From Podarcis pityusensis (Eukaryota), in NCBI GenBank assembly GCA_964106645.2, contig OZ067051.1: a stretch of DNA of 64,000 nucleotides; one strand, written 5' to 3'. The translations under genes and the position numbers were made by a program. Shown piece after piece: positions 6,771 through 49,490 of this stretch (position 1 is its first letter; each line of letters begins with the position of its first letter). Under the pieces are notes generated by a model. That model did not search any database, was not told where the DNA came from, and saw only the letters and a program-made list of their open reading frames with translations.

Positions 6771-6912
6771 AGGAGAAAGGTGGGTGGTGTTTATAATATT
6801 ATATAAGCAAGTCCCACCCCACCGATCTACAAAGCCCTTAGTTCCCTGCGAGGAGGGAGGGGGCACCCAAAGGCAGCCCAGTCACCTCCAGCTTCTCCTT
6901 GCCTCCTCACAG

Positions 6913-7432
6913 ACGACAGCAGCATGCACGGCGACCGAAGCGACAGTGGGCGGAAAACCCGGGTGGAGAGCGGCTACTTCTCCTTGGAGAAGACGAAACA
7001 GGATGGGAAGCCGGATGAGCAGCAGCTGCCGACCCCGCCATCCCCTCCCAGCCCCAGCACCCCCAACAACAGGTACAGTGACTCCCAGTCGCCCTCCCCG
7101 GAGCAGAGCTGCCCCTTTCCTTCCCCAGGTGGCCCCCCAGGCAGCCGAATGGTGTACAGCTTCTCCCTCAACTGCCTGGACTTGACGAGCGACTCCATGT
7201 CCGGCTGCGAGGACTCGGCAGTGAGAGACGGGGCGAGGGGAGCCGAGAGGCCGGGCCGCCCCCTTTCCTTTAGAGCAAGCCGGCAGTACGCCACCCTGGC
7301 GGATGTCCCCAAGGCTGTCAGGATTAGTAACCGGGAGGCTTTCCAAGCGGAGAGGAAGAGGCTGGAGCGGCGTTCCCGAGCTCGCAGCCCCGGAAGGGAA
7401 GAGGTGGCTCGGCTCTTTGGCAGCGAAAGGAG
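6913..7432 (+). CDS. MPRIP: MPRIP exon with two alternative donors (short form ends 7072, long form ends 7432)
   Basis: Acceptor cacag; translates as RVESGYFSLEKTKQD...PSPSTPNNR. Donors AG|GTACAG (7072) and AG|GTAAGG (7432) are both phase 2 and 360 nt apart. Confidence 0.9.
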
Positions 7433-8694
7433 GTAAGGAACGGGCGGCAGCGCCGCCGACGGGTTTCTCGTTCAGAGGAAGCCGGTTGGCTCCTGGCAGA
7501 TGAAGTTCACGGCGCCTCTCGCGGCGTTTCTCCAATTTGGGTCTCCTGTTGTCGGACTACAAATCCCATCATCCCTGGCCACCGGATGATGGGCCTTGTA
7601 GTCCATCAACAGCTGGAGGCCCGAGATGGAGAGATGCGGCAACGTTTGAGTGGGGTTTTGAGCTGGCCTGCTGGGCACAAATAGGGCAACCTCCGCAAGT
7701 CCATTTTTGCTGGGTGGGTGGCGTTAAGTGTGGCCCGACCAAGTGGCATTTCAAGAGATCACTCGGTTGTGCAGAAGAAGGGATACTGGGATCCGGATTC
7801 GCAAATGGCAAGGCAGCCAGGAAGCTGAAAGCAGGTGCAGGCAACTCCCTACTTGTGCGTGACCCCCAAAAGTTATTGGTTTAGCTGCCTCCCAGAGCAC
7901 CGCACCCAAGCCCTGAAACTATATATCACTGCATCCAGGATGCAAAGGAACTCCTTTTCCTTGGACATGGCTTTAATGCAGGGCTTTTGTGGGTATCGCA
8001 CAGCATGGGCAAGGAGTCTGGTATCTGGTTCGGGGCTTGGAAAATGTTAGCTTTCTTCGGAAAGAAAGGCGGAGCAAGTTGCTGGACCTCGTGCTTTTGA
8101 AGCAAAGCGCAGAGAAAGCCTCCAAAATTAAAGAGTGGGTCGGCACCAGGTTTTAACTCAGTTGGCGGTTGAGTTTAAAGCTTTGCACAACTGTCTCTCT
8201 CCCCGCCCCACATATTTCCCTAGGCAATGCATGTGTGGGAAGTCTGGCATGTATGCTGGCCTAGCTTAATGAGCTGTGATGGAGACTCAAGGAGACGTCG
8301 TTTAGTGGAGCTGAATAAGCTGTAAAATACCTTGGTATGGGCACAATAGCTGGATTGGTGCAATAGCTCTGCTGATGTGCAAGGCCCATATTTGCAGCTG
8401 CAAAGGTGTATTGCAGACATACAACCGTGTGTGTGTGTGTGTGTGTGTGAGTGACATTCCAGACCCCTCACATATAATAGTTGAAACTTGCCTTTCCAAA
8501 TCAACTCTCTCTCTCTCGTTTTCTCGGCATGACGAGGCCTGCAGATAAAACGACAAGAGAGCAGGAGGCACAGGACCAGAGGGGAGAAAGCTGTCTTCTC
8601 TCTTTTGCTCGCTCTTGATTCCCGACAGGCATGTTCACTCGAGCAGGTTTCTGACGAGTGGCTGCGGGGTCTTTTTGCATTTGTCTCCAGTATT

Positions 8695-8810
8695 CACAGA
8701 ATCACAGCAGTTGGAAGGAGACCTGAGGGTCTTCTAGTTCAACCCTCTGCAACGCAAGGATCTTTTGTCCAACGTGGGACTTGAACCCGCGACCCTGAGG
8801 TTAAGAGTCT
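8695..8810 (-). mobile_element. SINE with tRNA-Lys-like head and CR1-derived 3' tail
   Basis: Minus strand reads AGACTCTTAACCTCAGGGTCGCGGGTTCAAGTCCCACGTTGG, followed by the CR1-type tail CCTTCCAACTGCTGTGATTCTGTG. Confidence 0.65.
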
Positions 8811-8917
8811 ACCCCAGACAGATTATGCTGTGGTGTTGACCCTCGCACCAAGAAGCAAAAGTACAAGGGGTGGCAAGAATATTGGGGGATTCTTGGGCCA
8901 CATTGGTTAGGCTGCCT

Positions 8918-9210
8918 TACATTTAAAGCACTTTTGTACAACTTTCAACAGCCCCAAAGAATTCTGGGAGATGTAGTTTGTTAAGGGTGCTGAGAGTCGT
9001 TTGGAGACCCCTATTCCTCCCGCAGAGCTACGATTCCCAGAGTGGCTTAGCAGTCAGTCCCTCTTACCAGGGAAATCTGGGAACTGTGGGTCTGGGAGGG
9101 AAATAGGGAGTCTCCTAATAACTTTCAGCACCCTTAACTAATTACAATTTCTGGGATGCATTAGGGGGAGAAATTATTTCTCCAGAGGTATAAATAGTGC
9201 TTTAAATGTA
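8918..9210. mobile_element. Palindromic non-autonomous DNA element (MITE)
   Basis: Termini TACATTTAAAGCACT / AGTGCTTTAAATGTA, with internal arms GTTAAGGGTGCTGA / TCAGCACCCTTAAC. Confidence 0.7.
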
Positions 9211-9786
9211 GGGGATGGTATTGTGTTAGATTTTACTAAGAGAATAATTGGCCTCATTTAGTTGTCTTCATTACTTCCAGTGGGTCTCCTCTGAGTAGCC
9301 CACAGTGTGGATGTGGTCTTAGTGTAGAAACAACCAGGACATTCTGCAGGTCATTCAAGATAAATCACAGGCACCTAGAAGTTCTCACCAGGGACCCCGC
9401 TCAGGCCTCGGTTCCTGCAGTGATCCTAAGCTGCTGCTCGCATGAGATCTAGGAACTGTTTGCAATGGGAAAGTTACATTTTTCGGGATGACCCTTTTTG
9501 CGCCGGGTACCAGTCTCCATGCACGCATGGGTGGGGAATTCCCTCGCAGGTGAGACCCTCCTCATGGTTCTTTCCTGACATGTGCCCAGAAGGTACAGGC
9601 TTCATGTAACTTCGAAGGCCTGGCAGGTGGCTGGGCCCCCTCTCCCAGAGCCGCTTAGCTGAGTGTGTGACACACCTTGTCGTGTCTTTTGAAAAATGGA
9701 GGGAGAATGTACATGCCCCAAGAAGTGGTCCCCTTTCCAGGTTCCTGGATTGCAGGATTCATTAGTGTTGCTGTGAAACTGGGGAA

Positions 9787-9827
<41 letters not shown>

Positions 9828-9859
9828 CCTTGCGCATGTGGCTGGGTTTCCCAACAGAA

Positions 9860-10220
9860 TTAATGATAATAATAATAATAATAATAAAGAGATAAAACAT
9901 CAGACATTAAAAACTTCCCTAAACAGGGCTGCCTTCAGATGTCTTCTAAAAGTCAGATAGTTGTTTATTTCCTTAACATCTGATGGGAGGGTGTTCCACA
10001 GGGCAGGTGCCACTACCGAGAAGGCCCTCTGCCTGGTTCCCTGTAGCTTCACTTCTCGCAGTGAGGGAACCGCCAGAAGGCCCTTGGAGCTGGACCTCAG
10101 TGTCCGGGCTGAACGATCAGGGTGGAGAAGCTCCTTCAGGTATACTGGGCCGAGGCCGTTTAGGGCTTTAAAGGTCAGCACCAACACTTCGAATTGTGCT
10201 CAGAAATGTCCTGGGAGCCC
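9860..10220 (-). mobile_element. L2 LINE 3' end with (TTA)n-type tail
   Basis: Translates as LVLTFKALNGLGPVYLKELL...RQRAFSVVAPALWNTLPSDVKEI...FREVFNV; (AAT)n tracts at 9786-9885. Confidence 0.9.
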
Positions 10221-11419
10221 AAAGGAAACTAGGCAGCTTGTTGAGCAGGGCAGGCCAACTTCTCAGACCAAGTGGGCCGCAAGAATCCTCGGAACAATGC
10301 CTTGCTCAAGGTCCCCCAGTGAGAGCTTCATGACCGAGCAGAGATTTGAACCCTGGTCTCCCAGGGTCCAACACTCTAACCACTGCTCTGTGCTGGTTTA
10401 GCCTTACGTGCAAACCAGCTTGGCGTGACTCCACTCCCGTCGTGAGCTTTTCCTGCCCTGCTAGCAGCTGCCAGTGATTGCACAAGTGTAACATCTGAAT
10501 GAAGTCCCAGAATGCAAAGAAGCATGGATTTTTTTTTGGGGGGGTGTCATTAGCAAAATATCCAACAGGAGATGAATGGGGCTGCTGTGTACAGCCTCTC
10601 TGGTTACCCTCCAGCCATCCTGGTGTCTGAAACTCTCCTAAGAGGCGTGCAACCCTTAAGAACAGCTGGATCCAGCCGGCATCTGGCTTCCAGAAATGTC
10701 TGGGGAAACTCTTTAGCAGGGTGTGGACACTGCAGCCTTCTTGTTGCTCGTCCCTTAGCGTCTGCTCTTGGGATTTGCCATGTTCCCTCTGGCCATGGAG
10801 GTCCTCCTGAGCTGTCGCGGTTAATAGCTGTCAATCAGCTCTCTCCTCCGCAAAGGCGTCTTCTGTATCCAGGTGGGCTGGCGCAGGACGGTTTTCGGAG
10901 CCCTGCCTGCGGCCACCTGCAACGGCGAATTAACATTGCCCTGCAACCCCCCCCCCTTCCCCTTCTGCTTGGCTCCTGGCTGCTTCTCTGCTTTCCCCAC
11001 TTTGCTTGTTGCTTATTAACATTCTTCTCCCACCTGTGAGTCGGTTCTGTTGCCGTTTGTGGAGCTGAGCAAACTTGTTCCAAGCATCTGGTGTCTGTTT
11101 TTGCACCTGGACTTTCCTCCTCCTCTATTTGTGCCTGATCTCCGTTTGTGCATGGGAGTCCACTCCCCACTTACCACTCCCACCCCTGTCACAAACACAT
11201 ACTGCACATGCCAGGGTCCCAAGGAACAGACCAAGCGCTTTAAAAACAGCCAGCAAAATCCCAAACTCACATACTGCCTCCTGCCTTAGTCCCTCTGGGT
11301 CTTGGATTTCTTGTGCCAATTCTAATGTTCTCTGAGGGGCTGCGGGGTTATTCTAGCAACAGCCCAGAGCAAACAGTCCTTAGAACTAGTTACAGGTAGG
11401 TAGCTGGGTTGCTCTGCCA

Positions 11420-11800
11420 TGTTGTTGTTGTTTAGTCATTTAGTCGTGTCCGACTCTTTGTGACCCCCTGGACCAGAGCACGCCAGGCACTCCTGTCTTC
11501 CACTGCCTCCCGCAGTTTGGTCAAACTCATGTTAGTAGCTTCGCGAACACTGTCCAACCATCTCGTCCTCTGTTGTCCCCTTCTCCTTGTGCCCTCCATC
11601 TTTCCCAGCATCAGGGTCTTTTCCAGGGAGTCTTCTCTTCTCATGAGGTGGCCAAAGTATTGGAGCCTCAGCTTCAGGATCTGTCCTTCCAGTGAGCACT
11701 CAGGGCAGATTTCCTTCAGAATGGAGAGGTTTGATCTTCTTGCAGTCCATGGGACTCTCAAGAGTCTCCTCCAGCACCAGAATTCAAAAGCATCAATTCT
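11420..11800 (-). mobile_element. RTE-BovB LINE 3' end, 5'-truncated
   Basis: Translates as RVPWTARRSNLSILKEI...LKLRLQYFGHLMRREDSLEKTLMLGKMEGTRRRG...VTKSRTRLND; (CAA)n tail. Confidence 0.93.
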
Positions 11801-11904
11801 ATAGTTGAAACAAATTAAATTAAATTAAATTAAAAAATTCCTCCCAGTAGCATCTTAGAGACCACCTAAGTTAGTTATTGGTATGAGCTTTCGTGTGCAT
11901 GCAT

Positions 11905-11942
11905 GTATCTGAAGAAGTGTGCATGCACATGAAAGCTCATAC
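11905..11942 (+). ncRNA. Minimal type I hammerhead ribozyme motif (PLE type; C11.1-to-U variant)
   Basis: Sequence GTAT-CTGAAGA-A-GTGTG-CATG-CACAT-GAAA-GC-TC-ATAC. Helix I is GUAU/AUAC, the catalytic boxes are CUGANGA and GAAA, and helix III is the palindromic AGCU. Confidence 0.6.
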
Positions 11943-12617
11943 TGATAACTAACTTAGTTGGTCTCTAAGGAGCTACTGGAAGGAATTTTTTATTTTATTT
12001 TATTAGTCCTTAGAGGAGCAGTTTTCATACTCCTTTCTACCCACCACCCCAGGCTTCCTTGGAAGCATATCAGGGATTCAAAACCAAGGAGATCATTAAC
12101 AGTACACAAGTTTGTCTGCCAGATCCACCTTCCCCTGGTTTGTTCTTTCTCACGGGGAGATTCAGTTGCTAAACAGAGTGCAAGAGGCATTGTCTGTGAC
12201 CAGAAAAGGCAGTGTTTGAAATTAGCCAGGAGCCAGGCGCATTTTGCTCCTAGGTATCGCCCAAGTGAGGATGCCTGGACACAAGAATGGTGCCTGACAT
12301 CTCCACCATCTGAAGGTGCATGCCTGGAGATCATTGGATCTGAACTGTTTTCACACACTAATAGTCCATCCTGTAGAATTCTATCTTTTATATTTTAACC
12401 TCATAGTCAGAACCAAATTTCAGGAACCAAATTGCTTTTTCTGTGCAGCCTGAACAGGAGCAGGGAATGACATGACGGTTAATTGTTGTCTCTTGCTTTC
12501 TCTTTAACCACCCCAGTGCCCTGCTCACAGTTGGGAAGAATGTTGTTTGTTGTTTGTTGTTTGTTGGGACTCTCACTCCTGCCAGGCCATCCAACATGGC
12601 CAAAGATCAGGATTGAT

Positions 12618-12975
12618 GGGACGCGGGTGGCGCTGTGGTCTAAACCACTGAGCCTAGGGCTTGCTGATCAGAAGGTTGGCGGTTCGAATCCCCGCAATGG
12701 GGTGAGCTCCTGTTGCTTGGTCCCTGCTCCTGCCAACCTAGCGGTTCAACAGCACATCAAAGTGCAAGTAGATAAGTAGGTACTGCTCCGGCGGGAAGGT
12801 AAACGGCGTTTCCATGCGCTGCTCTGGTTCGCCAGAAGCGGCTTAGTCATGCTGGCCACTTGACCCGGAAGCTGTACGCCGGCTCCCTCAGCCAGTAAAG
12901 CAAGATGAGCGCTGCAACCCCAGAGTCGGCCACGACTGGCCCTAACGGTCAGGGGTCCCTTTACCTTTACTTTAC
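12618..12975 (+). mobile_element. Sauria SINE, full length
   Basis: 5' GGGACGCGGGTGGCGCTGTGG, B box GGTTCGAATCC, (ACCTTT)n-type tail. Confidence 0.92.
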
Positions 12976-13634
12976 AGCCCAGCATCAACTTGCGGGTTTG
13001 CTTTTTTAGGGCTTCCTCTCCATCCATTTTCAAACTTTTCTCTATACCATCATGAGGGCTAGAAGCATGTTTTTAAAATGCAGTATTTGGCTGAGAAAAC
13101 TGCCCCCCCCCCCGGTAACATGTTCACCGGCAGAGCTGAGATTCAGTGGTTGGCTACAATTCAGTTTTCACAATCCTCTTTTTTTAAAAGGAATGGATCA
13201 GGAATTCAGCACTACAAAACGGAGCACGGTTTAGTCCAGCTGAAACACAGATTAGCGGCACATTTGCAAGCTGGTATAAACGTCTGTACTTAAGCCAGCT
13301 TCAGATGGGTTTGAAATTGCTGTAGTTGTTGCAGAGAATTGGGAATTGTAATGTTAGGGTGGTGCCCCCTTAACCGCTTTAAAGAAATCATGACTACTAG
13401 GTGGTCTTGAGAGCAAAGGGTGGCTCCTAAACTGGTTTGAAACCGGTTTAAATTTGTAGTGTAAATGTGCCCTAGGATGAGAGAAAATGTTTATTGAATA
13501 GGTTGGAGGATATGTGACCCATCCTGGTTTATGCCAACCTTGCCAATTTACAAGGGCCTTCAAGTGGCATGGGATTCATCTCTGGAAAGGCGTGCCTCAC
13601 AGTTCATTGGTGTCCACACTCCCCCTGCTGGTAG

Positions 13635-14190
13635 CATAGATTCATAGGATTGTAGAGTTGGAAGGGAGCTTGAGGGTCATCTAGTCCAACCCCACCCCCA
13701 CCCCCAAAATGAAGGAATCTCAACTCAAGCATCTGTGACAGATGGACATCCAACCTCTGCTTTAAAACCTTCAAGGAAGGAGGGTCCACCACCTCCCAAG
13801 GGAGACGGTTCCACTGTCAAGCAGCTCTTACTGTCAGAAACTTCTTCCTGGTGTTTAGTCGGAAACTCCTTTCTTGGAACTTGAATCCATTGGTTTTTCC
13901 TCTGGAGCAGGAGAAAACAAGCTTGCTCCCTATTCCATGGGACGGCCCTTTAGATATTTGAAAATGGCTATCCTATCTCCTCTTAGTCTCCTCTTTTCCA
14001 GGCTAAACATACCCAGCTCCTTCAACCATTCCTCATCAGGCTTAGTCTCCAGACCCTTGATCATCTTGGGTCACCCTCTTCTGCGCATGTTCCAGCTTGT
14101 CAACATCCTTCTTAAATTGTGGTGCCCAGAGCTGGACACAGAATTCCAGGTGTCGTCTGACCAAGGCAGAACAGAGCGGTTCTATGACTT
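13635..14190 (-). mobile_element. CR1 LINE 3' end
   Basis: Translates as [33 protein letters not shown] and PSLKVLKQRLDVHL; ATTCTATG-like tail. Confidence 0.9.
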
Positions 14191-15548
14191 CCACAACTTT
14201 TTTTGCCAACTCATTTTGTTGTACAATGGAAATGGAAACTGAACTGTTCTGTCTAAATTTTACTTCCCAATAGGTGCATGTTGTGTTTCTGAATGAGGTT
14301 TTTGGTTTCATAGGGAAGGCTAAGACTGCACAGCAACACATTTTCAGAATCTCTTATCTTTTTGTCCCCAAAGCTGCAGGTGGAGGGGACGCAGTCCTCC
14401 CAGCTTGGCATTGTTTGATTACAACCGCCTTTGTCTCTAAAGTGGTAGCTGTCTTTCCAGATAAAGACCACTCCTCACTTAGCGACTGAGCCCTTGCCTT
14501 CTACATACTCTGATCTAAGTTGCAGGTTCTACTTCTGTCGAGAGATGCTTGAAAGGGTTTTGGCACAGCTTGCTAAAATCTCAAAAGCCAGGAATGCCCA
14601 ATCAGATTCGGCATTCTGGAAGTTGGGCTTCCAAGTGCCTCGTATAACTCCTCGGTCCCTTTCTGCAACCAGGAGAACCAGAACAAGTTATGTAAATTTG
14701 CTCGAAGGTTGCACAATAGATTCAGCTTACAGAATGTAGCAGCAGCCCTTTTCTCGGAATTGGCATGGAGTTGCGTGCAACCGCGACGGTTTCTCATTTT
14801 TGCTCCTTGAGAAACTAAAGCCCAGCATAATGGATGCACGCTCTTGACTGTCTCTTTCTGTTTTAGATCAATGAGCCCTCTCTATCTGGGCTTTAAACAT
14901 TTCCTGGTAGATTTCCACCCTCTTCCCATTCTCCCTACACACAGGTACACAGAATGTGCTCCTTCTCTGGGTACATCTCTTTTGTCCCCTCTGGCTGTTC
15001 CTGACTCCTCACCTCACTTCCTGCAGAATAATAAAAAAAATCAACCCAATGAAACTGCTTTCAATCAAAAGCAAATCATTCTTATCCCATTGACTCCCTG
15101 CCACATGGAAACCCTTCTAACCTTGGAGCGTGGCTGCCTGCCACAAACTAACATGCATGGGGCTCCCTTCTCTTTTCCTCCCTACCTTTTTAACCCCCCC
15201 TCCCCCAACGAGAGCATGGCACCCCACGCCCCAAAGTCTTTAAATAACTCTTCTTTTTGTTTTACATTCCTCAGCAGACCCATTGGCCAGACCAGGCGTT
15301 CAGCAGCGGCAGATGCAGGTTTTAGGGATCCCGCTGCTCCCCTCCCTACAAAGAGGGTTACGAAGGTGTGGCTTTTGCAGGGGAGAAGCGGTGGCAGGAG
15401 GAGCTCTCATGCGCTCCCCGCCCAGCCGGTTCCAGACTTGCCTTTAAGTTGCCCTCAAAAAGCAGCTGGAGAGCAGCAGATTGCTGAGAAACAGCTGCGC
15501 AAAACAACAACAAACCTCTGGTTACGTGAAACATATTCAATGAACACA

Positions 15549-16122
15549 CAAGACATAACCGGCTGTACGTTTGAAAAAATAATATATTCTATTTGTTGTA
15601 CTGAATTGTAGATTTCAACAGAAGTAGCTGATAAAGTTCAACGAGAAAAGTAGCAGACCCAGTGGATCAGTTCTGGGGATATTTTTGAACCGTTTAACCG
15701 CTGGGTCAATATATAAAAAGGTAAAGGGACCCCTGACCATTAGGTCCAGTCATGGCTGACTGGGAATGCGGCGCTCATCTCGCTTTATTGGCCGAGGGAG
15801 CCAGTGTACAGCTTCCGGGTCATGTGGCCAGCATGACTAAGCCACTTCTGGCGAACCAGAGCAGTGCACAGAAACGCCGTTTACCTTCCCGCCGGAGCGG
15901 TACCTATTTATCTACTTGCACTTTGAGGTTCTTTCAAACTGCTAGGTTGGCAGGAGCAGGGACCAAGCAATGGGAGCTCACCCTTTCACGGGGATTCGAA
16001 CCACCGACCTTCTGATGGGCAAGCCCTAGGCTCTGTGGTTTAACCCACAGCGCCACCCGCGTCCCTTTGGGTCAATATATAGCATATGTTATTTTTTCAA
16101 ACTCACAGCCGGTTACGTCTTG
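15549..16122. repeat. 44-bp inverted repeat enclosing two hairpins (T-shaped palindrome), interrupted by a Sauria SINE
   Basis: 15549-15592 matches the reverse complement of 16079-16122 at 39/44 positions. Internal hairpins lie at ~15592-15645 and 15656-15708. Confidence 0.8.
15716..16065 (-). mobile_element. Sauria SINE with 14-bp TSD
   Basis: Reverse complement of the 12618 copy; TSD TGGGTCAATATATA at 15702-15715 and 16068-16081. Confidence 0.93.
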
Positions 16123-16609
16123 AGAAATATCTGCGGGCAAAGCAGGAGGCAAACCACCCCATCTCACCGGCCACTTCTCCACTGCAAACCGGTCTCTCTC
16201 CCCCGGCCACTTTTGAAGCCGGGTGTCGTCTGAACGCCTTCGCTGTGCCCTTTCCAGGCATCTGAGTTCTCCAAGTGCCTGCATGTTCCTTTTTGGCAAG
16301 CTCTCGCAGGGGCTGCCTGGGCAAACTTAGATTCCACTGGGGAACAGGGATTCCTTCTCCTGCACCTCTCCCCGAAACTACTCACCCGGCCCCTTTCCTT
16401 AATGATCAGAATAACCACTCACAGCGGGGATGTGATTTTGGGGGTTTGCAATGATTATAATTTCATTTTGCTGATGATTTGTATTTTTTTGTTTTGTTTC
16501 TTTCTTTTTTTTAGAAATCTTGGAATGATTTTAATTTTTATTTGTGGGTTGGGGAGGAGGAAATATAATTTTGTCTGTTCATTCATTTTCCAGCTTTCTT
16601 TTCTTCCAG

Positions 16610-16640
16610 GTCTTGTTGCTCTCCACCTTCTGCTGTGTGA
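16610..16640 (+). CDS. Candidate alternative terminal exon of MPRIP (R-SCCSPPSAV*)
   Basis: Long pyrimidine tract plus CAG, phase-2 compatible with both upstream donors; ATTAAA at 16950. Confidence 0.35.
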
Positions 16641-17616
16641 CGTGTCCGCCCTTTTTACTCCGCCTGCTTCGCTACCATCTCATCTCCAAAAAAAAAATAT
16701 TTAAAAATTCGAGCTGTAGACAACCTGGTGGTGCAACCCCCCTTTCCATAAGAAATCAGCCTGCTTTGTTTTGTTGGGTTTTTTTGTTCCGTTTCCTTTT
16801 TCATAAAGAAAATGAGCCCCTTTGCCATTTGGCCGAGACAAATGTCAATTTGATGATCCTTCGCTTTTCATCCCTTTTTGCAAAACTGAGATGGAGGGAG
16901 TGGGGGAAAGTGGGGTTTCCTTTCTTTTTTAACGAAAAGGCTGCTGTCAATTAAAAAAAACACATTGCAGAGTGTTAAAATATGTGCAGCGCGGCTTATG
17001 AAGAAAGGTGTTTTGCGGGGTCTTTGCCTTCCCTGGGAGTATCCGGCAGGCCTCTTCTTCAGGCCTCTTGGTGTTGGGAAAGCTTTGGGTGGCTCTCTGT
17101 CCCTGCATGTGGCATGGCGTGGTCTTGACTGTGGAGGCTAACCTGGAAGGGGTTCCTTGGTGGGAAAGATCCTGCCTCAAACGTTGGGACTCTGGGTTTT
17201 GTGATCATCTGGTCCCTTCCAGCCCAATGTTCCTCCCTTATTAGCAGTTAGTCTTTTTTATTTTGTTTTATATTCTTTATTGGGGGAGGAAGTACAAAAT
17301 TACAAGTGCACAGCATAAGACACACACACAAAAGGAACAAGAAATAGTACCCATGTAGAAAACAAAACAGGATAATGTATTGTGCACATTACAAAAAAAG
17401 GGGTATTGTTATTGTAGTTAACCCTGAATTATAGCATGGCTGGGGTCCGTTCGTGTGGGAGGCAGTCATTTCCCACAGCAAGAGACCAGAAGTCCCTCTT
17501 ATTGTAGTTAACCAGACCTTAATCTCATATGGTATTTACTCTTATAAAACAGACTTCTGGAAGTTAGTCTTATAAAAGATCCATCAGATCCAAGCCTTCT
17601 TCAACTGACACAGCTA

Positions 17617-17781
17617 CAGTGGTACCTTGGTTGCTGAACTTAATCCGTTCCGGGAGTCCATTTGACTCCCGGAACCGTTCGAAAACAAGGCACAGCTTCC
17701 AATTGGCTGCAGGAGCTTCTTGCGTCATTCGGGAGCCAATTTGTTTGGGAGCCAAGCTGTTCGAGTACCAAGGTACCACTG
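17617..17781. mobile_element. Tc1/mariner (Tigger-like) MITE
   Basis: TIRs CAGTGGTACCTTGGT / ACCAAGGTACCACTG; TA TSD. Confidence 0.85.
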
Positions 17782-18197
17782 TACAGTGGGACATCAGATT
17801 CCAGTCTCCAGAGAAAACGCTACTTTTCATTTTGAGAGTAAAGCCAGGCATTTATTCATGTCGTCTCTTTCTAGTTAGATGATAATGCCTTCAAAGTGAT
17901 AAGTGCTTGCAAGCAAACACACAGATACATGTGTATTTATGTCTTGCAGGCGGGCTGAATCCCAATAAGTTTATTTCCGGTCATATTCCTTCTCCCCTCC
18001 CACCCCACCCCCCCGGCAATAAATCCAAACAGGGCAGAGTGAGCTGTTTTGAAAGGGTTGCCATTCCAATACCTTAGGAACGCTCTTGTTGAATTGGGGT
18101 GAGGGGGATGGAGCTGCTGTGATTTACTGAGGATTGTTGCAGGCTCCTGTCTTTTGGAAAAAAACAGCCCTGGTTTCCCCTCTTATCTGTCTTGCAG

Positions 18198-18339
18198 GCG
18201 GTCCCAGGTAATTGAGAAATTTGAGGCATTAGATATTGAGAATGCTGAGCACATGGAGACCAACGCCCCCTCTGGAACTGCCCTCTCCAGTGAGACCCGG
18301 CAGGGCAGGAGCGAGAAGAGGGTTTTCCCCAGGAAACGG
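18198..18339 (+). CDS. MPRIP: MPRIP exon (RSQVIEKFEALDIENAEHMET...FPRKR)
   Basis: Acceptor ttgcag, donor CGG|GTAAGA, phase 2 to 0. Confidence 0.95.
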
Positions 18340-43800: not shown

Positions 43801-44069
43801 GGCTCGTTTGCGTTCAAGCTGTTTCAATGTTTTATCATCCGTGTTGTCTGTTAAACTTGAAGAAGTGTTTCCTTGTTTCCCTGAGCAAAAGGGATTTAAA
43901 AAAAAAAAGAAAGCAGACAAAACTGAAACCATCCAAAATTGGAGCAGATGGGTAGTGATCAAACCTATGCAAGGAATTGTTCTGTGGCCCAACTTGACCA
44001 GAGGTGTGACACTCAGAACTGGGAACCGAGAGTGCTACTAATCTCCTATTTAATCAATTTTTTTTAAAG

Positions 44070-47000
44070 ACCGAGGTGGCCACCCCCCCATCGGGGGCCT
44101 GGCAGAGGCTCCATAAAGTCAATCGAGACCTCCAGAGTGAGCTCGAAGCCCAGTGTCAGCGGCAGGAACTGATCAACCAGCAGATCCAGTCGCTTAAGCG
44201 TAGCTATGGGGAGGCCAAGGATGTGATCCGGCACCACGAGGCAGAGATCCAGAGCCTACAAGCGAGGCTCAGCAATGCCGCCGCAGAGCTCTCCATCAAA
44301 GAGCAGACTCTGGCAAAGCTGAAGAGCGACCTGAAGGCTGAGCGGAAGAAAGCTCAGGAGCAGATGGAGGAGTGGCAGCACAGCGAGGAGGCGCTGAGCT
44401 CGCAGCTGAAAGCCAGCGAGCAGAAGCTCAAGAACGCGGAAGCACTCCTGCTGGAGAAGACCCAGGAGCTGCGAGATCTGGAGACACAGCAGGCTCTGCA
44501 GAGGGACTACCAGAAGGAAGTGCAGCGGCTCCAGGATCGGATCGCTGGCCTCAGCCAGCAGCTGAGTGCCAGCGAGCAGTCCCAGATGCTGATGGAGGAG
44601 AAGCTGCAGAGGAATTACGAGGCTTTGCTGGAGAGCTGTGAGAGGGAGAAGCAGGTCCTCATCCAGAGCTTGAAGGAAGCGGAGGACAAAGCCAGCGAGT
44701 ACGAGAACCAGCTTCAGAACAACGAGCAGCAGATGGAGGTCTTGCAGAAGGAGAAGCTGTCCGTCAAATTTGAAAGCAGCGAAATTGTCCACCAGCTGGA
44801 AGAGCAGCTCGAAATGAAAGAAGCCAGCATCCAAAAGCTCGCCGAACACATCAAGAGCCTTGAGGAGGAAAGGGATCAGATCAAATGCCGGTTCCAAGAG
44901 CTGATGAACCAGGTTGCCGAGTCTGATAACGAGGTCGCCAAGCTGCAAGCCAAGCTGCAGCTGGAGGAGAGCAACTACCATGCCCTGGAGCACTCCTACG
45001 AGGTGGTGTCAGGGCAGTTCCAGAACTTGCAGGCGGTGCTGAAAGAAAAGGAGGAGGAGCTAAGAGTGGTGAGGGAAGCCCACTCGAGAATTGTGGAAAA
45101 TAAGGACCCGGAGCTTGCAGAACCTTTCTTAAAAATAACTGCCGTAAGTAGCAGTCCAGAAAACGTGGAAGATCAGCAGACGCAAGACGATGAGTTGAAA
45201 ACATCAGCTGGTGAGAGCTTAGCGCCGTGTGTTGTGACGGAAACAGGTGGTCAAGTTGTGGAGCCAGCACAACATTCACAGCTTCAAAGACTTCCAGTCT
45301 CAGAGTGCATGCTCACTGAGGATCAGGGCCCCAATATCAGTCACAGGCAGATCTGTGAGCACCCAGCAGTGAACCCAGAAGAGTGTAGGTCTACCTCTAA
45401 GTCTACAGACCTTCAAGAGAGAGAGATTTGCCAGAAGGAGTCTGCAAAATTGGACACAGAAACCCCGGGAGCCAAAAGGCAAAGGATACGTTTCTCCAGC
45501 ATCCAGTGCCAAAAATATATCCACCCTGATGGATCTGAGAAGATGTGGACCAGCAGCACTTCATCAGACACCAGCCAAGACAGGTCACTTTCAGAGGACA
45601 GCATGTCATCAGAACCAGCTCCGAGTTACCCAGGCACAGGCGATTCGGAGACTTACCTGTCTATCATCCACGCCCTGGAAACCAAACTTTTCATCACAGA
45701 AGAAAAGCTCAAAGATGTGACCATGAAACTCGAAAGCCAGCAGGGCCACAATCAAGACACCCTCATCACGCTTCACCACCAGTGGGCCAGCACAGAAGCA
45801 CAGCTGAGGGAGCAGCTTCAGGAGAGCTTGGCTCAAGTCAGCAGGCTGGTCTCACAGCTGGAGGGCGAGAAGCAAGAAAAACACAAGCTGCTTGAGAATC
45901 ACATCCATGAGCTGGGAAGGTTCCATGGGAGAAACAACCAAGCCTTGGTGTGCTTAGAGCAATGCAGAGAACAGCTAAGAACTTTGTCCAGATGTGACAC
46001 GGAGCAAGAGAGAGAGGTGCTTTTGGGTGTCCTGTCGAATACAGAAACTTCTTTAACGGATGCAGTCCTCGTGTTGCAACAGGCACTTTCTTCGCCTGGT
46101 CATCTGGCAGAAGAATTGTCTGCAGCCCAAGCACTGCATGCAGAAGGCAGCAGCTTGGGGGAGGAGGAGAAAACTGCCCTCCAGCAGCAACAAGTGGGGT
46201 TTTCTGAACAAGACCAGCTGCAGATGCTTTCCAGGAGGGTAGCTTTTGAAGCCAGCTTGATCAACCAGATAGCAGAGTCCCTAACAGATGCAACCTCCAA
46301 GATTTCCTTAGCCCTGAGAGAGATTCATGGTTCGGTGGATGCAGTCTTGCTGGAGCCTTCAAATATTTCACATATTGCAGTGGCCTTGGCTGATGTCTTA
46401 TCTAAAAAGCTAGTGTTGGAAGATGAGTTTTGGAGCCAGGTGGAGGAGCTAAGGAAGAATTTGAGTGCCAAGGAAGAAGAGGGGAAGGGAAAGGTGGAGG
46501 CCCAGTGTTTAAACATTCCTCAGTGCCTCATTCATTCAGTGGCAGACAGCACGCTGATTAAAGCAGAGCTCAGTTTTGTTGCCCAGAAAATGAGAGAGTC
46601 CTTTCATCAGAGATTAAAGGCCATCGAAGAAGACCTCCACAACACCAGAACAGCCCTTCAGCAGCACAAGTGCATGCTGGAGGAAATCATTAAAGCATAC
46701 CAGACTCCTGAATTTGACGGCGTTATGCATCAGATTTCCAAAGCCCTTGAAATCCAAGAGGGAACTTCAGCTTGGGATGCCAGCCTTTCTGGCTTCATGC
46801 CAGAAGCCCACACTTTGCAGGATCTTGGCAGTCAAGCTCTAGCCGCCGTTCAGGGCGATCTTGCTCAGCAGCTCAAAGACAGAGCAAATGTCCTGAAAGA
46901 AATATCTGCTGCTCTCCTGTCTCTGTCCCCTGACGAGGCCCTGAAAGACTGCCGCAAGCTGCTAAGGATTTCTTCCAGTCCTCCCTACGATATGTGTCTG

Positions 47001-47879
47001 GGGGATCTTGAGCGCTACTCGTCTCTGCTTGTTCAAGATGCGATTATCCAGGCCCAGGTCTGTTACGGGGCTTACAGGGCAAGGCTGGAGTATGCCAAGG
47101 AGGCACGGCTGTACAAAGAGTCCCTGCACAATGTGGATGCTCTGTGTCAGGAACGCATCAGGGCAGTTGCCACCCTCCGGGAGGAATATGAAGAGCTGCT
47201 CCGAAAGCAACAGGGCAAGTATGCTGAGATGATTGCTGTGCTTGAAAGGGAGAATTCGGAGCTCAAGGCCAAAGTGGAGCAGCTTGATAATCAGCGGAAA
47301 CTCCTGGAAGAAGAAGAACATAAACAGAGCAAGAAAATACTGGAGCTTCAGGACACGTATGAAGAGGAGATCCGGAACGTGGTTGAGCAGCTTCACAAGA
47401 CCGAGGATGCTCTGAAATCAGAACAGACTGAAGGGCTGCAGCGACTAGATTCTCTTGCGCGGGATAAGCTGAACTTGGAGACTTTCCACCTTGAGCAGAT
47501 CCAAACTCTAGAGGACAAGTTTCAAGTCAAGATGAAGGAACTGCAGGTCTTCCACAACGAAGAGCTGCTGGCCTTGCAGAAGCGCTACGAGCAAGAGCTG
47601 CAGTGCTTGCAAGCATCTCTGGAACAGTACCAGAATCAGCACTCAGAAGCACTGCCTGCTGTGGCATTGGATGCGGGAGAAGCATGGGCTGCTGATGACC
47701 CCGCTGGCGGGGTGCAGGGCTCAGAGAGTGAGCTGAACGCCATGCACGGCTTGAGAGAGCGCATTCAAGAGCTGGAAGCCCAAATGAACATCATGAGAGA
47801 TGAGCTGGAGAACAAGCACCTCGAAGGCAATGCGTCCACTCTGAGGGAGAAATACCAGAAGGACTTTGAGAACCTTAAG
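44070..47879 (+). CDS. MPRIP: MPRIP giant coiled-coil exon (1,270 aa; TEVATPPSGAWQRL...YQKDFENLK)
   Basis: 3,810-nt open frame, phase 0/0, acceptor tttaaag, donor AAG|GTTTTT; heptad-rich E/Q/L/K composition. Confidence 0.9.
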
Positions 47880-49490
47880 GTTTTTTCTTCTTCACTGCAC
47901 TTAATTTCAATAAGTCATGTGTGTAAATCTCTCCCCGCCCCCTACCCATGGCAATGCAACAATCATCTTTTTATTTAAAGCAAATAGAATTATATAACTT
48001 GATGGTCAGAGGATAGATAGAGCTAAAAAGAGGGACGGAAACACTTCCTTCCCATGACAGTGAAAAAGGTAAAAAATAATAATATTCTGTCACAGGATGG
48101 GATGCATTTCAAACGGAATGTTTACAGTCCACAAGACTGCCCCCTAAGAACACTAAATCAAAACTTTGCATTGCAACATAGGAACAAATTGTCCATCTTG
48201 GAAGCCCAATATAATGTCCTTGAGGTGATACAGCCAGAGCCCTAGGGGTGTATGTCATCTTCTGCAAACCTTCACAAGATCTTTTTCACCTTTAGATATC
48301 AGATTTCCTATAACTGTCCTTCAAAACACCTCTCCTTCTATCGAGCCTACATCCTTACAACCTAAAACCAATGAAACGGTAGTATCAAAGCACAGAAAAA
48401 CAAAGAAAACAGGAGCACAAGCACATAAAATAGGGTCTGGCCGGGAAAAGCCTGCGCAAAAAGATAGGTCTCTACAAGTCTTCCTTTTAATCACATTTTA
48501 TACCCCCACCCCCTTTCCTAAAAGAAGCTCAGAGTGTAAATGGGATTGCATCACCTTATCCTTGGACGAGCCCTGCAGGCTAGGCAAGGCTGAGAGAAAA
48601 AGACTTGCTTCAGCTGAAATTCACAGCTGAGCCATGATTCAAACATGGGTCCCTCCAGTCTAAGGCCAACATTCTGCCCACGGACACCCTCCAGTATTAA
48701 TTGCTGTAGCATATGGCCATATAAAGGGGCTAATGGGAGGTAAATGGTATGTTACATCATGAAATGATGATAGTAATGTGAGAAGCAGTCAACAGTTCTA
48801 GGAGAATACTCTGTTCCAGGCATGGCTGAAGCCTGCCTTCTTCTTTCTTTTGCCTTTCACAAACCTTTGTAGCATTCCCACAAGAACATTCTCCACCCTT
48901 CAGCAACAGAGCCTTTTCACAGCTCACAAGGTTTGCCGTACAGGCCAATTGCACCTGCTGGCATGCTTGCACTAAATGTCCCTTGCAGAACACTGATCTC
49001 CCCCTGGACTAACTTTCTGCCATCCTAAAAAGTATTGCCTTGGCTGACAGATCTGCAGCAACCACTTCTGCAGCCCACAGCTGGTTCAAGGGGCAGTTCT
49101 GTGCTTACCAAGGAACAGAGAGCAAAGCGGCATAAATAAATCCCAGCCCACCTGCTAAGATTCTGGCCTCAGTGTAAAGAGCTGGGAACTGAAGCTGTAC
49201 ATGCCTCCACAGATGTGTTTCAGGAGGGCATGGGCAACTTATATAACCACAGCTTTGCAACGTGTTGTTATTTACCATATTTATATAGGCTGGCCAGTAA
49301 CCTATATCCTCGCAGCCAGCTGCAGAAATACCGTTTTTAAGCATTCATGCAGAAAAGACCCATCTTTCATTTTTAAAGAGCCCAGTTTTTGCCCTTTGTA
49401 ATCGCCAATAAAAATTCTGAAGATATTTAAAGATTTTATTTAAAGACTTAGGCTAGGATCCTAGAGGTACCTTAGGTAGATTTTAAAGAG

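Follow-up and report, generated by a model that had tools for sequence, protein, structure and literature searches.

Host gene and anatomy of the insert

The window, that is, the whole 64,000-nt stretch of DNA analyzed here, carries exons of MPRIP. Its ORF at 44010–47978 shares 98% identity with MPRIP of Podarcis raffonei, and tblastn placed flanking MPRIP exons at 6867–7433 and 18196–18339 on the plus strand. Given that plus-strand exons lie on both sides of 11905–11942, the hammerhead-like motif that the first-pass annotation had reported there indeed lies within an intron, in the sense orientation of the gene. Pfam searches of 10 window ORFs returned one sub-threshold match, which was uninformative. 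The long MPRIP isoform has a very large coiled-coil exon of ~3.8 kb (44058–47882, plus strand), common to other reptiles and birds. The features around the motif are as follows.

7434–18195, plus strand: MPRIP host intron (tblastn limits, approximate; further alternative exons possible)
11375–11384, plus strand: left copy of the 10-bp target site duplication
11385–11420, minus strand: outer section of the long arm, consisting of the pLTR "tail", severed by the nested LINE piece
11421–11800, minus strand: nested 3' fragment of a LINE of very high copy number, its C-terminal frame open and followed by a (CAA)n tail (from reading frame and contig depth)
11801–11903, minus strand: inner section of the long (tail-bearing) arm, an inverted pLTR copy whose start lies within helix II
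11904–12004, plus strand: short arm, a pLTR transcript 5' stub spanning the hammerhead, between roughly the inferred start site and a T-rich stretch
11905–11942, plus strand: minimal type I hammerhead motif (letters read; equals the parent pLTR, L092, except at 11.1)
12005–12014, plus strand: right copy of the 10-bp target site duplication

The whole insert (11385–12004) exceeds what the first-pass annotation had recognized and lies between the two copies of the target site duplication. Within it, the ~160-nt palindrome previously placed at 11833–11990 is real, but with its AT-rich ends it reaches 11821–12002, as 83-nt arms (11821–11903 and 11920–12002) with 89% identity, the motif belonging to its right half. 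The short arm is 92% identical over 88 nt to the autonomous Penelope-like element (PLE) L091, as is the inner part of the long arm over 72 nt. The latter keeps C11.1 and lacks the CUGAAGA box, in agreement with the first-pass description, and the pLTR tail aligns to the parent element immediately before its ATG.

The long arm was split by the LINE fragment after the Penelope insertion. In contigs assembled from DNA runs, the fragment had a depth of 10^5–10^7, compared to 8–37 in unique flank, with loose ends at 11420–11423. This LINE piece, nested in the Penelope arm on the minus strand, has an unbroken 124-codon frame besides its (CAA)n tail, and we take it to be RTE/Bov-B-like from a protein motif. 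The left junction of the insert, at which unique flank joins tail and LINE, was found in all four DNA runs, which carry four organism labels, while the right junction was bridged in two of the four. Given that these junctions occur in several organisms, the insert seems to be shared and not recent; neutral fixation explains such sharing, and selection would too. Another multi-copy repeat fragment with raised contig depth (12200–12400) starts ~200 nt right of the insert.

A minimal type I hammerhead motif

The window letters contain every part of the motif that had been read at 11905–11942. Helix I comprises 4 bp (GTAT, 11905–11908, with ATAC, 11939–11942), followed by the first catalytic box CTGAAGA (C3–A9, 11909–11915) and an unpaired extra A between positions 9 and 10.1 (11916). 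Helix II comprises 5 bp (GTGTG, 11917–11921, with CACAT, 11926–11930) closed by the 4-nt loop CATG. GAAA (G12–A15.1, 11931–11934) and GCTC (11935–11938) come next, with the palindromic 15.2–16.2 stretch AGCT (AGCU) at 11934–11937 as the vestige of helix III; cleavage is predicted to follow C17 (11938). The copy retains C17 and each of the 11 core letters. At position 11.1 it has T (11930), giving G10.1-U11.1 instead of G10.1-C11.1, which still pairs as G-U; letters and alignment thus both agree with the C11.1U change reported before.

Minimal PLE hammerheads are described as having a short helix I, an unpaired base before 10.1, G10.1-C11.1, and a palindromic 15.2–16.2 (PMC4209133). The metazoan examples in that source are alike in being type I, with a helix I of 4–5 bp, in both pLTRs, and mostly as single dispersed copies, and they include sequences from turtles and snakes. 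In contrast, the window copy carries U11.1 and lies inside a palindrome, and its helix II of 5 bp with a 4-nt loop differs from the 7–8 bp given for Schistosoma (PMC4209133). By its letters, the window motif is a minimal type I hammerhead of PLEs and, since 11.1 lacks the G-C pair while the family mostly has C, a decayed member of that class.

A descriptor requiring helix I and helix II matched once in the window, at 11905–11942, and in none of 30 Markov-resampled windows. The Rfam scan of 9000–15000 at E ≤ 10 contained no hammerhead family among its 18 matches, none of which reached its gathering score. A loose two-box pattern was no commoner in the window than in shuffles (10 matches vs. 7.1 ± 3.8) and was therefore not counted in favor of the motif. 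Two miRNA-like Rfam matches (34.8 and 34.5 bits, with gathering scores of 85 and 200) were rejected as reflecting a generic long hairpin.

Parent element and genomic family

The 30-nt hammerhead core, with two free positions, had 1,697 exact matches in the genome, and the reversed control had 0. The palindrome as query gave 2,187 first-look genomic candidates, the best 40 of which were scored and were 83–93% identical besides the window copy itself; being biased by the query, these 40 best BLAST copies were kept out of the junction statistics. The route to the parent led through a tandem copy (L011), after which four loci were fetched whole. Two of them, L091 and L093, carry a complete 897-aa ORF, while a third meets another hammerhead before reaching its end and the fourth has an internal deletion. 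Both complete ORFs contain RVT_1 (E = 7e-12 and 6e-12) and, at the C terminus, a GIY-YIG domain at residues 795–842 (E = 3e-5 and 3e-4, the latter just under the cut-off), preceded by a linker, CNKPRCQLC, that fits the CX2-5CxxC linker of the Neptune definition. The hammerhead occurs in both pLTRs of L091 and L093, ~3.0 kb apart, directly behind TCAGT and ~35 nt behind a TATA-like box; we take these to be promoter elements, with TCAGT as an Inr-like sequence.

The parent element shares a single ORF, RT, the CX2-5CxxC linker, and a GIY-YIG at the C terminus with the Neptune clade (PMC8557442), and on these features we assign it as a probable Neptune-type PLE, the linker being common to Nematis as well. 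Finding this parent bears out the earlier recognition of a Penelope-type minimal type I hammerhead with an AGCU helix III vestige. The intact elements at L091:1533–4226 (G000:C7) and L093 (G000:C1), both with a tail end, have ORFs nearly identical to each other, which points to a young family that could still be active. In these youngest intact elements the loop of helix II is not palindromic, while helix II is self-complementary in the window copy (11917–11930) and in L092; the loop is free to vary. The ORF of the Anolis carolinensis Poseidon element PAc starts in stem II (PMC11167929), whereas the ATG of the parent element lies ~130 nt behind C3.

Head-to-tail tandems of 181–185-nt units with two to four hammerheads were found at L061, L062/L063, L065–L067, L080, and L085/L086. 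The joint between units links the ORF start to the transcript start and is identical within an array and different between arrays, as would be expected from a circular or repeatedly copied template. These units resemble non-LTR retrozymes, for which reptile units are reported to average 176 bp (bioRxiv 10.64898/2026.07.22.740005). A retrozyme needs at least two tandem units, as seen at L061, L062, L065, and L085, whereas the window holds one inverted pair with one hammerhead. The tandems, and not the window copy, are candidates for dimer cleavage. Our search of the published papers found none on this lacertid family; Repbase or Dfam may well list it, and the 2014 reptile motif alignment by the authors of PMC4209133 may already contain its motif.

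Decay of the catalytic core

For the statistics on arm ends and pairs we took the first 100 of 1,692 matches to an anchor outside the hammerhead, of which 99 arms could be mapped; all belong to a single chromosome and a single subfamily. In 40 unbiased arms, all 11 core letters and H17 were kept in 29, C was present at 11.1 in 35, and each helix I position was conserved in 38–40, with no covariation seen within this young family. G12 was the most altered position (8/40). Core positions other than G12 had 5 changes in 400, compared to 48 in 1,440 at other positions, although 17 of those 48 fall at three subfamily-marker-like positions, without which the difference shrinks; including G12, the core had 13 changes in 440.

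Among the 1,697 core copies, C11.1U (TG) occurred in 215 and G12A (CA) in 301. G12 is the hammerhead general base. The C11.1U of the window copy is thus ordinary CpG decay, and G12A would be catalytically worse. That the family loses G12 no less often than C11.1, and that the window copy is one of at least 1,697, argues against the self-cleavage or switch function in the host that had been suggested for this locus.

Arm ends and the proposed origin of inverted copies

We mapped the 5' ends of the 99 sampled arms relative to C3. One third of them (33/99) ended at -6 to 0, another 26 reached beyond -7, and 35 were scattered over +1 to +28. Only two ended at the cleavage site ±1 and three beyond it, two of which are alignment slips. 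Given that nearly all arms reach upstream of the cut, their templates were probably uncleaved, and the junction positions suggest that many were copied to the transcript 5' end, the start site itself, ~7 nt before C3, being inferred from the same positions. The opposite possibility, cleaved RNA as template, was prompted by two loci (L051 and L052) and was rejected: ends at +29 to +31 numbered 2 of 99, against 1.25 per position over +1 to +28.

A 3' splice site would be another way to produce the pile-up, with a pyrimidine tract and CAG lying before helix I; Drosophila Penelope provides the comparison case. We do not favor this reading, given that the ends scatter over -6 to 0 and peak at -4, not at -5. 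Six of the ten arms ending at -4 have a G just before the end in place of the T of the parent; this G may be a copied cap or may come from the inverted arm.

Inverted partners were located within 300 nt for 41 of the 99 arms. Both arms had been sampled for 11 close pairs, and in every one of these a single arm was tail-ended and the other ended in a T-rich stretch; short arm ends may be underestimated here because T-run length varies. Insertions of EN+ PLEs are described with an inverted pLTR, a one-sided tail, an 8–10-bp target site duplication, and TATA and Inr elements (PMC3846280, PMC8557442). The window insert is similar in its head-to-head inverted pLTR, single tail, and 10-bp duplication, with a TATA and an Inr-like motif in the pLTR, and unlike them it has no ORF and consists of stubs of ~100 and ~140 nt, one of them split by a LINE.

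We propose that such copies would arise when an endonuclease makes a staggered cut and both target strands act as primers, with short pLTR transcripts that have not been cleaved as the templates of reverse transcription; copying would begin at the tail in one case and at a T-rich stretch in the other, after which the two cDNAs would be joined head to head near the transcript 5' end. Both the two-strand priming and the head-to-head joining are inferred from junction positions. The sampled arm ends fit the scheme described for PAc in vitro, with two internal RT start regions, extension of both target strands, and an uncleaved RNA template (PMC11167929); the ends left in vivo by this Neptune-type family are thus consistent with the Poseidon result that uncleaved RNA serves as template. 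Self-priming on an antisense template has been proposed as an alternative origin of inverted copies (PMC3846280).

Folding and the likely fate of the window copy

The palindrome hairpin has a predicted free energy of -116.4 kcal/mol (z = -21). Forcing helices I and II would cost 29–30 kcal/mol in transcripts ending at 11942 and 36 kcal/mol in the whole hairpin, and the pair probability of the hammerhead beside the upstream arm was 0.0000, including when the transcript ends at 11942. Taken alone, the 38-mer forms both helices with a probability of 0.55–0.81, but 11900–11960 already does not. Proteins and helicases do not enter into these energies. Being upstream, the mirror arm would be transcribed before the hammerhead, pairing with the motif during transcription, which is why we predict that the motif is inert. 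Minimal hammerheads have no stable helix III and depend on a partner. Given that the C-keeping arm lies on the minus strand, it offers no dimer partner in the same pre-mRNA, and no second hammerhead partner was found in 214 kb including all MPRIP coding exons found, in which there was one descriptor match and one element match.

We are thus rather confident that the window motif is a decayed pLTR hammerhead of a Neptune-type PLE, lying in head-to-head stubs in an MPRIP intron and predicted to be inert. The sequestering hairpin and the probable attenuation that the first-pass annotation had anticipated are both upheld, whereas the potential self-cleavage site, or hairpin/ribozyme switch, that it had suggested is not: the blocking arm comes first, the energy gap is 29–36 kcal/mol, and there is no partner in cis. 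Points on the other side are the intact core, the folding of the isolated 38-mer, and the lower rate of change in the core outside G12. The window copy is most likely an inert passenger, and we consider it very unlikely that it acts as a switch or is cleaved within the intron. It would fold into a long hairpin in the pre-mRNA and be spliced out with the intron, while the hammerhead would serve the element's own cycle, through tandem dimers or with the help of the element's protein, and not the host.

The best surviving alternative, although improbable, is low-rate cleavage of MPRIP pre-mRNA once the hairpin is opened, through AGCU pairing in trans with family RNA or through the element's protein. 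The core is intact, the G-U pair at 10.1–11.1 still forms, intact ORFs and dimer-capable tandem copies exist elsewhere in the genome, and protein-assisted cutting has been shown for the Poseidon element (PMC11167929). However, this reading must overcome the 29–36 kcal/mol barrier set by a blocker that is transcribed first, and it lacks a cis partner in 214 kb. In addition, the minimal PLE hammerhead is described as not cleaving as a monomer and only at a low level as a dimer or trimer, so that even true dimers cut poorly in vitro (PMC4209133), and for the Anolis Poseidon hammerhead, which depended on the protein of the element and was not needed for insertion, no RNA-seq ends were seen at the cleavage site (PMC11167929).

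It is highly improbable that the hammerhead is idle while the 83-bp hairpin acts as double-stranded RNA, as a substrate of A-to-I editing or a small RNA source with minor effect; the hairpin is very stable and has the two weak miRNA precursor matches in Rfam, but those scores lie far below their gathering scores and are typical of any long hairpin, and hundreds of such inserts exist. We give hardly any weight to a latent site, in which the element's protein or a helicase would open the hairpin so that Penelope activity would cut MPRIP and hundreds of other lizard introns; if true, transposon expression would be coupled to host RNA processing.

Finally, co-option of the insert as a hairpin/ribozyme switch tuning MPRIP splicing or level has a close to negligible probability: the motif is in sense orientation within an intron, the insert is common to related organisms, and the intronic hammerheads of amniotes (RECK, DTNB) are likewise type I and domesticated, but those are canonical and conserved across whole classes (PMC6155905), whereas the window copy is minimal, multi-copy, found at the level of a lineage, ~92% identical to a young family, drifted at 11.1, and hit by a LINE, and a gap of 29–36 kcal/mol leaves no switch.

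As a single locus, the decayed Neptune-type hammerhead in the MPRIP intron matters little, being a common footprint of a known class. If host introns were truly cut at such sites, a large hidden layer of reptile RNA processing would exist, and the evidence points away from this. The family-level result is of modest use for understanding Penelope transposition, given that arms gather at the inferred transcript start and not at the cut (33 vs. 2 of 99) and that each close pair has a single tail-bearing arm (11 of 11). The genome also contains intact ORFs and short tandems, which are ready substrates for tests of hammerhead function.
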